DNA from: Patescibacteria group bacterium
GTDB taxonomy: Bacteria; Patescibacteriota; UBA1384; JBAYJO01
Reading direction: 5' to 3'
NCBI GenBank assembly: GCA_041665085.1
Contig: JBAYJO010000005.1
Location: 1 to 63,381, forward strand
Length of the DNA stretch: 63,381 nucleotides
Positions within the stretch are counted from its first letter, which is position 1. The number at the start of each line of letters is the position of its first letter. The notes beneath the pieces are model-generated. The model was given only the letters and a program-made list of their open reading frames with translations. It ran no database searches and was not told the DNA's origin. Made by a program: the position numbers and the translations under genes. This document shows positions 9,902 to 11,566 of the stretch, one piece after another.

Positions 9902-10039
9902 CGTGCTCTGCACGAAATTCTTAATTTAAAATTTAAAATTTAAATTGAATTTAAAATTTTTAAATGTTTTAAACATTTGATCATTAGAAATTTATTGAAA
10001 ATTAAAAATTGAAAATTGAAAATTCCGCGCAGCGCGCGG
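9902..10039 (+). repeat. IVS-like insertion module in 23S domain I (helix 9/10 region)
   Basis: cgtgc-tct-gcacg, then an AT-rich hairpin (aatttaaaatttaaaat...gaaaattgaaaatt), then ccgcgc-agc-gcgcgg. It has the same three-part architecture as 1445-1605. The AT-rich core resembles 16728-16835. Confidence 0.7.
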
Positions 10040-10150
10040 TAGGGCACCCGCTGAACTGAAACATCTTAGTAAGCGGAGGAAAAGAAATCAGCAGAGATTC
10101 CCTAAGTAGTGGCGAGCGAAAAGGGAAGAGCCTAAACCTCACTAATTATC

Positions 10151-10311
10151 CGAAATTCCAATATAGTTAAAAAGTTCACAAAGTTCATAAAGTCCATAAA
10201 GTTCAAAGAATTAAATATTTTTAGTTTATATTCAAATTACTTTATATACTTTTTTACTTTCGACTTTATAAACTAAAGCATCGAGCGATAGCGAGATGTG
10301 TTGGGATTTCG
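10151..10311 (+). repeat. 23S expansion hairpin 1, built from phased AAAGT/ACTTT repeat arms
   Basis: Base stem cgaaattccaa / ttgggatttcg. The arms are agttaaaaagttcacaaagttcataaagtccataaagtt and tactttatatacttttttactttcgactttataaact, followed by aagcatcgagcgatagcgagat. Confidence 0.7.
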
Positions 10312-10360
10312 TATAGTTAGATGGGGGGTTTCGGATGACGCATTCTCGTGTCTCACTAGT

Positions 10361-10537
10361 GTTCGACACTTAAGTCAAAAGTTCTTAAAGTCTATAAAGT
10401 TTAAAAGTTAATGGAATTTACTATTATATAGTTTTTTCAACCAACTTTATAAACTTTCGACTTTTAACTTTATAAACTGAAGTATCGAGCGGTAGCGAGA
10501 TACGAGACAAAGTTACAAAATCAATTGCTAGTCGAAC
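10361..10537 (+). repeat. 23S expansion hairpin 2 (a tandem relative of 10151-10311)
   Basis: Base stem gttcgac / gtcgaac. The arms are agtcaaaagttcttaaagtctataaagtttaaaagtt and caactttataaactttcgacttttaactttataaact, followed by aagtatcgagcggtagcgagat. Confidence 0.7.
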
Positions 10538-11404
10538 GCTCCTGGAAAGGACGGCCATAGACGGTGACAGCCCGGTAGACGAAAGTGATTGAACTTTGAG
10601 CGTTATTCCAGAGTACTGTCGGACACGTGAAACCCGGCAGGAATTTGGGGTGATCATGCTCCAAGGCTAAATACTCAAATGGATCGATAGCGAACTAGTA
10701 CCGTAAGGGAAAGGTGAAAAGTACCCCGCTAAGGGGAGTGAAATAGTACCTGAAACCATATGCTTACAAGGAGTCGGAGCCCGCAAGGGTGACGGCGTGC
10801 CTTTTGGAGAATGAACCAACGAGTTTGTAGATAATGCGAGCTTAAGGCCTTGACGGCTGGAGGCGAAGCGAAAGCGAGTACGAATAGTGCATTTAGTATT
10901 ATTTACTAGACCCGAAACCGAGTGATCTATCCATGGTCAGGGTGAAGTCCGCCGGTAAGGCGGATGGAGGCCCGAACCCACCTGTGATGCAAAACGGGGG
11001 GATGAACTGTGGATAGCGGAGAAATTCCAATCGAACTCGGAGATAGCTGGTTCTCCTCGAAATATATTTAGGTATAGCGTCTTGTGATGCGGTCCGGGGG
11101 TAGAGCACTGGATGGTGTTCGGCGGGGAAACCTGTTGACATCAATCAAACTCCGAATACCGGATTTGTTAGCAAGGCAGTCAGACTGTGGGGGATAAGCT
11201 CCATGGTCGAAAGGGAAACAGCCCAGACCGCCAGATAAGGTCCCAAAGTCTATGCTAAGTGGGAAAGGATGTGATAAACCACAAACAACTAGGATGTTGG
11301 CTTAGAAGCAGCCATCATTTAAAGAAAGCGTAACAGCTCACTAGTCAAGGTTTATTGCGCCGAAGATTTAACGGGGCTCAAGCATAGCACCGAAGCTGCG
11401 GATG

Positions 11405-11566
11405 GCCGTGCACAGCACGGAAATTCCAATAATCAAGTAACAATAACCAAATAAATCACAAATTAAAAATTACAATATTCAATTTTTTTTGGATATTAAA
11501 TAATTGAAATTTGGTGATTGTTTGGGATTTGTATCTTGTAATTTGGATATTCCGTGTTGTACGCGG
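11405..11566 (+). repeat. IVS-like insertion module in 23S helix 45, near-identical to the 16S insertion
   Basis: It lies between caccgaagctgcgg and ggtagaggagcgttc, which is the helix-45 IVS site known from Salmonella, Leptospira and Coxiella. Long identical runs are shared with 1445-1605 (caagtaacaataa, caaataaatcacaaatt, aaaattacaatattcaa, atttgtatcttgtaatttgga). Confidence 0.8.

Follow-up and report, generated by a model that had tools for sequence, protein, structure and literature searches.

Introduction

Some bacterial ribosomal RNA (rRNA) genes contain intervening sequences (IVSs), which are known at helix 25 or helix 45 of the 23S rRNA of Salmonella, Campylobacter, Leptospira, and Coxiella, at helix 9 in alpha-proteobacteria, and in the 16S rRNA of Helicobacter, Campylobacter, and Clostridium paradoxum. 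Classically, RNase III cuts them out of the transcript and the ends are not re-ligated, which gives fragmented rRNA. IVSs are regarded as selfish or horizontally moving (PMC4990558, PMC2801512, PMC11270868). Here, we describe a family of hairpins, which we will call modules, three of which lie in the rRNA genes of a 63,381-nucleotide contig from a Patescibacteria group bacterium (JBAYJO010000005.1 of GenBank assembly GCA_041665085.1; we will refer to this whole stretch as the window). These three belong to a large family of hairpins, about 90–200 bases long, that occur throughout the candidate phyla radiation (CPR) at helix tips in three stable RNAs: 16S rRNA, 23S rRNA, and RNase P RNA. Each module has a G+C-rich palindrome, or clamp, at each end and a shaft of 7-nt (heptad) repeats in between. 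Like IVSs, modules are extra sequence at the tips of the same peripheral helices, their ends pair into an extended stem, and they are sporadic among lineages. Unlike IVSs, they form a single sequence-defined family over the whole superphylum, with palindromic clamps and a heptad shaft, and they occupy at least 12 rRNA sites as well as RNase P RNA and spacers, with up to six copies per gene and no open reading frame (ORF).

Many rRNA insertions, introns with homing endonucleases, and unlinked rRNA genes are a signature of the CPR, or Patescibacteria (PMC11270868, PMC8172020). Tsurumaki et al. 2024 (PMC11270868) found 1,346 insertions in CPR rRNA genes. Those that are under 200–250 bp, have no ORF, and are not introns were concentrated at the sites 23IS2 and 23IS4, at known IVS positions; they were dominant in Saccharibacteria and were called "probably" IVSs. 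These short unclassified insertions are almost certainly the same objects as our modules. That study does not describe a shared sequence, clamps, repeats, a fold, copies in RNase P RNA, or similarity within genomes, and the clamps, the heptad shaft, the fold, and the RNase P copies are not described in the searchable literature, including PMC9297842 and PMC8172020. IVS-like insertions at rRNA helix tips were already known, and short unclassified insertions in CPR rRNA had been published. What is new, according to the searchable literature, is a single family, spread over the CPR, whose clamp is palindromic and bistable and whose shaft is made of 7-nt repeats, its presence in RNase P RNA and in pre-rRNA spacers, its strict orientation, and its clustering within genomes.

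Other bacterial elements also resemble the modules. Repetitive extragenic palindromic (REP) sequences and REPINs are inverted pairs of short, G+C-rich, imperfect palindromes, with the whole unit forming one long hairpin, as we found for the modules; they too have many copies per genome that are more alike within than between genomes. But REPINs are extragenic, have a conserved GTAG head, and depend on a RAYT transposase gene, whereas modules are found within the genes of stable RNAs, sense to them, and have arms of 7-nt repeats. (There is no GTAG at the heads of the clamps.) The Correia elements of Neisseria are similar in size (~100–160 nt), have terminal inverted repeats, and are co-transcribed with host genes, and their hairpin RNA is cut by RNase III. 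Unlike the modules, they have TA target duplications and are intergenic, in both orientations. The palindromic elements of Rickettsia (~100–150 nt) insert in functional genes, including RNA genes, at tolerated positions. Most of them lie in genes for proteins and stay in the gene product, and, unlike the modules, they have no clamp or heptads. Nor do the modules show the intergenic scatter, in both orientations, of miniature inverted-repeat elements. Finally, the expansion segments of eukaryotic and archaeal rRNA are also extensions at helices 25, 45, 63, and 98, where long surface rods are tolerated (PMC11346433, PMC2441807), but these are site-specific sequence lineages, not copies of one mobile module that rRNAs and RNase P RNA have in common.

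Three modules in one rRNA operon

Within the window's 16S rRNA gene, a module at 1445–1606 (+ strand) replaces helix 6 (E. coli ~69–100). Its 5' clamp is G-CCGTGC-GTA-GCACGG (1445–1460), its 3' clamp is CCGCGC-TAT-GCGCGG-T (1591–1606), and the heptad-repeat shaft lies between them. A second module is in helix 45 of the 23S rRNA (11405–11567, + strand; E. coli 1164–1185), with clamps G-CCGTGC-ACA-GCACGG and CCGTGT-TGT-ACGCGG-T. The family's covariance model (see below) scores these at 156 bits (E = 3e-28) and 136 bits (E = 3e-24), and the two modules are identical at 141/163 aligned columns (86.5%), with one gap. This bears out a first-pass annotation of the window, made from the sequence alone, which had claimed that one element family is in both rRNAs and that these two copies share most of their sequence over about 160 nt.

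The third module (9900–10040, + strand; 99.6 bits, E = 4e-17) replaces E. coli ~137–181 of the 23S rRNA. By inspection, what we take to be the helix 9 hairpin is kept and what we take to be helix 10 is replaced. Its clamps (A-CCGTGC-TCT-GCACGA and CCGCGC-AGC-GCGCGG-T) are of the same type, and its shaft is built from a different heptad (ATTGAAA-type). The annotation had described it as the same clamps around a different AT core, with a start that was 1–2 nt off. The 63 kb contains five matches to the clamp pattern (CCGYGYNNNRYRCGG), each of them a module end, versus an expectation of 0 from shuffled sequence; the 5' clamp of the helix 10 module, at 9901, is one base off the pattern. Within the window, the covariance model finds only the three modules, and nothing else below E = 0.2.

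The three positions (16S 69–100, 23S 137–181, and 23S 1164–1185) are IVS sites, and 40 further copies of the module are at the same sites. Helix 45 had been singled out by the annotation as the classical IVS site, which is correct, and the same can be said of helix 25, helix 9/10, and 16S helix 6. The tip of helix 25 is plain in the window, while 17 other genomes carry a module there.

The annotation had also proposed that the core of the third module recurs in the 23S-5S spacer, and we found this hairpin at 16728–16832 (+ strand). Local alignment to the helix 10 shaft matches ~100 nt, with a score of 56.5 versus 16 ± 3 for dinucleotide shuffles (z = 13.5), and the rest of the window reaches 27.5 at most. 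The likeness is not merely low-complexity AT. The spacer hairpin lacks clamps, its covariance model score of 12.8 bits is not significant, and its own fold is weak (z = -1.25). It is probably a degenerate or clamp-less derivative. In two other loci (L022 and L015, numbered as explained below), the same spacer holds fully clamped modules.

We checked these junctions against independent assemblies of the reads. Logan unitigs at this genome's depth (~25–37x) span 1397–1760, 9795–10023, 9996–10075, and 11320–11660 with zero differences, and a second independent run supports the modules in 16S and helix 45. The longest exact run that these two modules have in common is 25 nt, which is less than the 31-nt word used in unitig assembly; as the unitigs also span the junctions, misassembly is excluded. 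(The unitigs over 1397–1760 and 11320–11660 are from X1, a DNA run of a groundwater metagenome that contains 90% of the window's sampled words.) The helix 10 shaft, as (ATTGAAA)n at 9994–10024, is also found in contigs of that metagenome that are unrelated and of greater depth, and in the bin at 9952–10035 the word depth is ~39,000 at 90% likeness versus ~30 for this genome. We considered this depth as a measure of module abundance and dropped it, because it comes partly from the ATTGAAA repeats of unrelated contigs.

Fold and conservation of the modules

Each module in the window is predicted to fold, at minimum energy, into one long imperfect hairpin, with -56.7 kcal/mol for the 16S module (z = -7.9 versus shuffles), -63.4 kcal/mol for helix 45 (z = -10.9), and -36.6 kcal/mol for helix 10 (z = -5.2). 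In this fold, the 5' and 3' clamps are base-paired, and the resulting basal helix, of 15–16 bp, prolongs the host helix. Across the family, this basal helix is 15–17 bp long, G+C-rich, and made of two near-identical interrupted palindromes, with the consensus xxxUGC-NNN-GCAxxx for the 5' clamp and xxxYGC-NNN-GCGxxx for the 3' clamp. The first-pass annotation had the clamps as a pair of flanking mini-hairpins. The shared clamps are indeed present, but the predicted fold joins both of them into the one basal helix. The two clamps are inverted repeats of each other, that is, the module has terminal inverted repeats.

The shaft, which the annotation had noted as an AT core, consists of 7-nt repeats: the arms have autocorrelations of 0.61 and 0.57 at a lag of 7 nt and of 0.50 at a lag of 14 nt, versus 0.35 for shuffled arms, and a lag-7 peak is present in 49/49 5' arms and 47/49 3' arms. 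The arms are strand-asymmetric, with 4% G in the 5' arm and 4% C in the 3' arm, and ~10% of the pairs are G.U. The fold has support from covariation. In an alignment of 49 modules, there are 32 consensus pairs, and 95.5% of cells are paired, versus 87.7% after shuffling. Changes on both sides of a pair are seen in 106 cells, as compared to 30.6 ± 4.3 in shuffles, and this was reached in 0 of 500 shuffles. Sliding the partners by 1–3 columns lowers the pairing to 28–46%.

The central triplets of the clamps were left free by our search pattern, yet they pair between the clamps: the three positions are paired in 49, 48, and 52 of 54 distinct copies. Six types of pair are used (A-U, U-A, G.U, U.G, G-C, and C-G), most often U.G at the central position (35/54). 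As the free triplets pair and covary, the pairing of clamp with clamp is selected at the RNA level. The flanking positions -1 and +1 are G and U/C, and these pair in 44/54 copies. The canonical clamp helix has U.G and A.C at mirror-image places in 48/54 copies. The triplets lie opposite each other as covarying pairs, and the consensus has no bulges, so there is no bulge-helix-bulge as in archaeal introns, where two 3-nt bulges with a 4-bp helix between them mark the exon-intron junctions.

Each clamp is also palindromic in itself. Variant clamps keep their own palindromy with other stems (CCGAUGC, CCAGUGC, CCGGUGC, GCGUGC, CUGUGC, and others). Among the variant copies, 32/40 of the 5' ends and 36/40 of the 3' ends can form a mini-hairpin of at least 5 bp, versus 20% for random sequence, and these palindromes are 5–7 bp long. 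Three copies have CCGAUGC..GCAUCGG as their 5' clamp and CCGCUGC..GCAGCGG as their 3' clamp, which gives perfect mini-hairpins and a clamp-clamp helix with A.G and U.C mismatches. Both conformations of the clamp, or else a two-fold-symmetric duplex, seem to matter. The extended clamp helix is favored over the mini-hairpins by 14–26 kcal/mol, so the mini-hairpins would be kinetic states, which might form during transcription or after a cut.

Distribution across the CPR

We scanned 185,579 GTDB genomes, one per species, for the two-clamp pattern; the contigs that matched are our L-numbered loci. The scan found 52 modules in 46 contigs. From the number of fixed bases in the pattern, we estimate that ~0.01 matches would be expected by chance, so all of the matches are related. 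Nearly all of the contigs are from the CPR: Saccharibacteria, Parcubacteria groups, Berkelbacteria, Falkowbacteria, Moraniibacteriota, Uhrbacteria, Gracilibacteria, Peregrinibacteria, and others. A few metagenome-assembled genomes (MAGs) are labelled as 'Gammaproteobacteria', 'Bdellovibrionales', or 'Caldithrix'. We rejected these as hosts outside the CPR, as their 23S flanks are 62–64% identical to E. coli, like those of CPR loci; also, L005 and L014 are 90–95% identical to a Moraniibacteriota locus. All of the matches are thus in CPR MAGs or in contigs with a 23S that groups with the CPR. We found no module in the viral contigs that we scanned.

To assign host sites, we mapped the flanks of the modules to E. 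coli. In 23S rRNA, helix 25 has 17 copies, helices 10 and 45 have 6 copies each, helix 98 has 3, helix 68 has 2, and helix 63 has 1, with 1 copy each at E. coli ~224–232, ~653–667, and ~1540. There are 2 copies in 16S helix 6 and 1 in the helix 10 region of 16S. Outside the mature rRNAs, 1 copy is in the 23S 5' leader, 2 are in the 23S-5S spacer, and 1 is just past the 3' end of 16S. Another 7 copies, from six genomes, are in RNase P RNA. These RNase P RNAs are of class A (E = 1e-11 to 1e-26) and are under Rfam's gathering score, as reported for CPR RNase P RNAs (PMC8172020). The further copies that the first-pass annotation had thought worth seeking exist throughout the CPR, and at many more sites than the rRNA genes of the window, including RNase P RNA and pre-rRNA spacers.

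The orientation of the modules is nearly uniform: 51/52 of the strict modules are in stable-RNA genes or rRNA spacers and in the sense orientation. The single antisense module is in the 23S-5S spacer of L015 (6263–6732 of that locus), beside a hairpin of 9-nt repeats. (The 5S gene of L015 is 156 nt, versus 120 nt for the model, with a G+C-rich insertion.) Three atypical elements adjoin a recombinase gene. These are L021 5974–6115, L024 4316–4457, and L047 750–891, from Gracilibacteria and Peregrinibacteria MAGs, and they have the same two clamps around a different, multi-hairpin core. Their loop triplets are not complementary (TTC/TCC), and they lie directly upstream of a gene for a 490-amino-acid serine recombinase, next to a tRNA. 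We found no match to an Rfam family at the L021-type locus.

We built a covariance model from 49 modules, and it has 206 strand-specific matches in the 46 loci. By this model, L014 has six copies in a single 4-kb 23S contig, and L011 and L020 have three to five modules per RNase P RNA. The RNase P RNAs at L011 4105–4726, L020 3171–4085, and L018 154–770 contain two to five module-like hairpins, which approximately doubles the length of the gene. The extra hairpins probably explain why these RNase P RNAs score below Rfam's gathering threshold. Rfam 15 has no family for the module itself. At the gathering threshold, the modules match neither RF00028 (group I introns) nor group II introns, and with E up to 10, Rfam gives only chance matches to hairpins (miRNA precursors).

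Similarity within and between genomes

We compared the modules without their clamps. The helix 6 and helix 45 modules of the window have an identity of 0.88. The four modules of a Taylorbacteria MAG, which are in the leader, helix 25, E. coli ~653, and helix 45, are at 0.87–0.94, and two modules in one RNase P RNA are at 0.91. In one MAG, the modules in 23S helix 45 and in RNase P RNA have an identity of 0.79 overall, with only 2 differences in the 3' 52 nt. Modules at the same site in different genomes have a mean identity of 0.64, though some pairs from different genomes and different sites reach 0.86–0.87 (L022/L031 and L034/L039). L034 (helix 68) and L039 (E. coli 224–232) are relatives with 96% identical flanks, and the module that they share is 87% identical. 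L044 and L004 have empty sites, of 28 nt and 14 nt, between flanks that are ~91% identical to occupied ones; as with IVSs, the presence of the module is sporadic among related lineages.

Likeness within a genome between different sites requires either movement between sites or frequent gene conversion. These comparisons point to spread or homogenization of modules within genomes. The first-pass annotation had suggested transposition or gene-conversion-like spread between rRNA genes. That the closest relatives of a copy lie within the same genome (0.88 in the window and 0.87–0.94 in the Taylorbacteria MAG) fits either spread or gene conversion between RNA genes.

At the flanks of the modules, there is no target-site duplication or other direct repeat, and no conserved target word. 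We also considered that the clamps might be a duplicated palindromic target, but their loop triplets are complementary, not identical. Since the clamps are palindromes, those at the two ends of a module repeat each other directly as well as in inverted form, so recombination alone could add, replace, or delete shafts, and solo clamps would be expected. In L038 (544–558), there is a lone clamp-like mini-hairpin, CCGCGC-AAA-GCGCGG (on the locus strand), flanked within 23S rRNA by the conserved segments GUAAUAGCUCACUGG and GUAACGGGGC. This may have been left as a solo clamp when the shaft was lost, and it was the only candidate. When we scanned metagenomes for near relatives with an empty helix 45 site, we obtained 120 loci from many sorts of bacteria, of which none was near to the window (best flank identity 0.73) and none had a solo clamp.

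Other features of the locus

The window's rRNA operon consists of the 16S rRNA (1376–2984, + strand; Rfam RF00177, 1468 bits), the 23S rRNA (9764–16695, + strand), and the 5S rRNA (16850–16965). The 23S rRNA is interrupted by group I introns and other insertions: it matches RF02541 in two pieces and RF00028 twice. By comparison to E. coli, there are 23S insertions between 12198 and 16320 at E. coli ~1917, ~1931, ~1951, ~2262, and ~2500. The matches to group I introns are at 12936–13204 and 14222–14522, and LAGLIDADG ORFs are at 12336–12809, 13486–13938, 14470–15204, and 15594–16256.

The 16S-23S spacer is 6.8 kb (2985–9763) and contains tRNA-Ile, tRNA-Ala, and several ORFs. One ORF (5588–6385, minus strand) encodes a guanylate-kinase-like protein, and another (8631–9314) encodes a protein that has the transmembrane helix conserved among mechanosensitive channels. 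The 5' end of tRNA-Ala has an exact 26-nt copy 305 nt upstream of the gene (5082–5107 versus 5387–5412), and the 3' half of tRNA-Ile has an 83% copy 143 nt downstream of the gene (4125–4153 versus 3982–4010). These partial copies may be scars of insertions into tRNA genes.

The 23S rRNA also has two tandem hairpins of ~195 nt at E. coli ~277–300 (10139–10335 and 10336–10530 of the window). Repeats of 9 nt ('AAAGTTNAT') make up the arms of both, and a conserved side hairpin, CATCGAGCG(A/G)TAGCGAGAT, is present in each. These 9-nt repeats are also found in the 16S-23S spacer (4205–4235, 4746–4789, and 7294–7349), where one pair brackets an ORF (4239–4745), and in other CPR loci (L015 6440–6560; L030 2197–2333 and 2914–3050). 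In L030, arms of 9-nt repeats lie between G+C clamps, which suggests a second type of arm in the same kind of module.

Proposed origin and fate of the modules

We lean toward the view that modules are dispensable or selfish hairpins that spread, or are homogenized, at the DNA level, and that the shaft is probably removed from the RNA by a dimeric nuclease, specific for double strands, that acts at the clamp. Modules would multiply or become homogenized within a genome as DNA, and homologous recombination or gene conversion between modules could accomplish this without a dedicated enzyme. In the RNA, the only stretch with the length and regularity that a dimeric, double-strand-specific endonuclease (RNase III, for example) requires would be the near-perfect clamp helix of ~18–22 bp. 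The most likely fate would then be removal of the shaft, as with classical IVSs. Afterwards, a G+C-rich stub could hold the pieces of the RNA together, or each end could fold back as a mini-hairpin. The nearly G-free 5' arm and the self-folding 5' clamp would keep the insert inert during transcription. The family, its fold, and the likeness of copies within genomes are established by the results above, and the route of spread and the excision are what we infer.

Several observations weigh against this proposal. Our searches of RNA runs found none that contained the window's organism or L031; in the Rifle SOLiD metatranscriptomes, only conserved 16S segments of L031 were covered. For L014, module-like sequence is at 4% of the flank's depth in DNA run X1 and at 1e-7 to 4e-6 in three groundwater metatranscriptomes, but this contrast (1e4–1e5-fold) spans different sites and communities, which also differ in filters and ribosome content. 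Study P15 includes DNA as well as RNA runs, and its RNA depth is zero both over the helix 45 module of L017 and over the adjacent 50 nt of mature 23S. That study's RNA also gives apparently 'spliced' joints at L035 (RNase P) and L017 (23S), for which any bacterium that lacks introns could be the source. RNase III does not depend on a specific sequence, which leaves the conserved sequence and palindromy of the clamps unexplained, and the processing stems of the window's own operon (1303–1328/3073–3098 and 9732–9757/16698–16723) are without the clamp motif. If the shaft is simply discarded, then its conserved heptad pattern is unexplained as well. Excision without ligation of the three to five modules in the RNase P RNAs of L011 and L020 would fragment the ribozyme. 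Finally, with a single candidate solo clamp, the recombination route has little direct support.

The main rival idea is that the modules are instead retained, as expansion segments: rods of ~60–75 bp in mature 16S, 23S, and RNase P RNA that are bound by a protein or play a structural role. We view this as possible but doubtful. It could account for the heptad pattern, with an invariant AA/UU every 7 nt that is conserved across deeply divergent hosts, and several modules in one RNase P RNA would be easier to tolerate. Helices 25, 45, 63, and 98 are sites of eukaryotic expansion segments, and the RNA runs that we examined gave no evidence of removal. However, modules are also found in leaders and spacers that are removed anyway (L016, L022, L045, and L015), and a rod at the tip of helix 68 (L034 and L041), which is on the subunit interface side, looks hard to fit. 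The strong depletion of module-like sequence in metatranscriptomes is a weak indication of removal. Brown et al. 2015 is cited, by both PMC11270868 and PMC9297842, as having found that CPR rRNA insertions are missing from transcripts.

For the spreading step, we also considered a DNA transposon, either miniature or REPIN-like, whose palindromic clamps would be recognized on single-stranded DNA by a transposase that is encoded elsewhere (IS200/IS605-like, or a RAYT-like HUH enzyme); RNA genes would be where the insertions survive. The near-identical palindromic ends, with their consistent difference between left and right (UGC..GCA versus YGC..GCG), would fit such an element, as would the absence of target-site duplications, which is also seen with IS200/IS605. 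The strict orientation bias could reflect strand-specific insertion, as rRNA genes are usually co-oriented with replication. Copies are alike within genomes and sometimes across genomes, and the three copies mentioned above keep each mini-hairpin perfect at the cost of the cross helix. But the flanks have no conserved target tetranucleotide, and the clamp stems covary (at least 10 stem sequences), which fits an RNA or single-stranded DNA structure and not a fixed protein-DNA code. The predominance of U.G among the central pairs is a sign that RNA pairing is under selection, and 0/55 strict matches are in a protein-coding gene. We think that a transposon is an unlikely source of the spread.

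A more speculative idea, to which we give little credence, is that the modules are enzyme-processed "hairpin introns" of the CPR. A dimeric nuclease would read the two-fold-symmetric, bistable clamp and free the rod from the precursors of 16S, 23S, and RNase P RNA; the ends would be re-joined or capped as mini-hairpins, and the element would copy itself between RNA genes through its hairpin form. A plainer relative of this idea, which we rate as slightly more improbable still, is a protein-dependent intron, in which a dimeric endonuclease acts on the two-fold-symmetric clamp, the shaft is cut out, and the ends are ligated, by the logic of the archaeal bulge-helix-bulge. The clamp helix is pseudo-symmetric, with half-sites that are identical except for U.G versus A.C at mirror positions; its palindromy is conserved through covariation; and multiple modules in RNase P RNA speak against a fragmented RNA. 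However, the triplets pair instead of bulging, so the geometry of a bulge-helix-bulge is absent, and there is no spliced junction in any RNA run that we examined, in which these organisms are poorly sampled. We know of no such system of protein-dependent introns in bacteria.

Last, an artefact, whether chimeric assembly between rRNA genes or a chance likeness of AT-rich, low-complexity sequence without shared clamps (the two ways in which the first-pass annotation expected that it might be wrong), is almost inconceivable: although the shafts are AT-rich repeats and a 30-mer at 9994–10024 is also in unrelated contigs of the same metagenome, the unitigs of two runs cross all of the junctions at single-genome depth, shuffle controls exclude chance, clamps are present at the module ends, and the same architecture is seen in 46 independent assemblies.

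Conclusions

The CPR makes up a large share of bacterial diversity, and the short non-intron insertions in its rRNA genes have so far been left as uncharacterized and probably IVSs. Many of these insertions now belong to a single family that is defined by both sequence and structure, which turns a vague category into a testable one. The covariance model can be used to annotate modules, and the conserved palindromic clamp offers a way to search for the protein that reads it. The modules bear on the annotation of rRNA genes, on the design of primers and probes, and on the detection of RNase P RNA in the CPR. They also bear on models of how insertions in stable RNAs are tolerated and how they spread.

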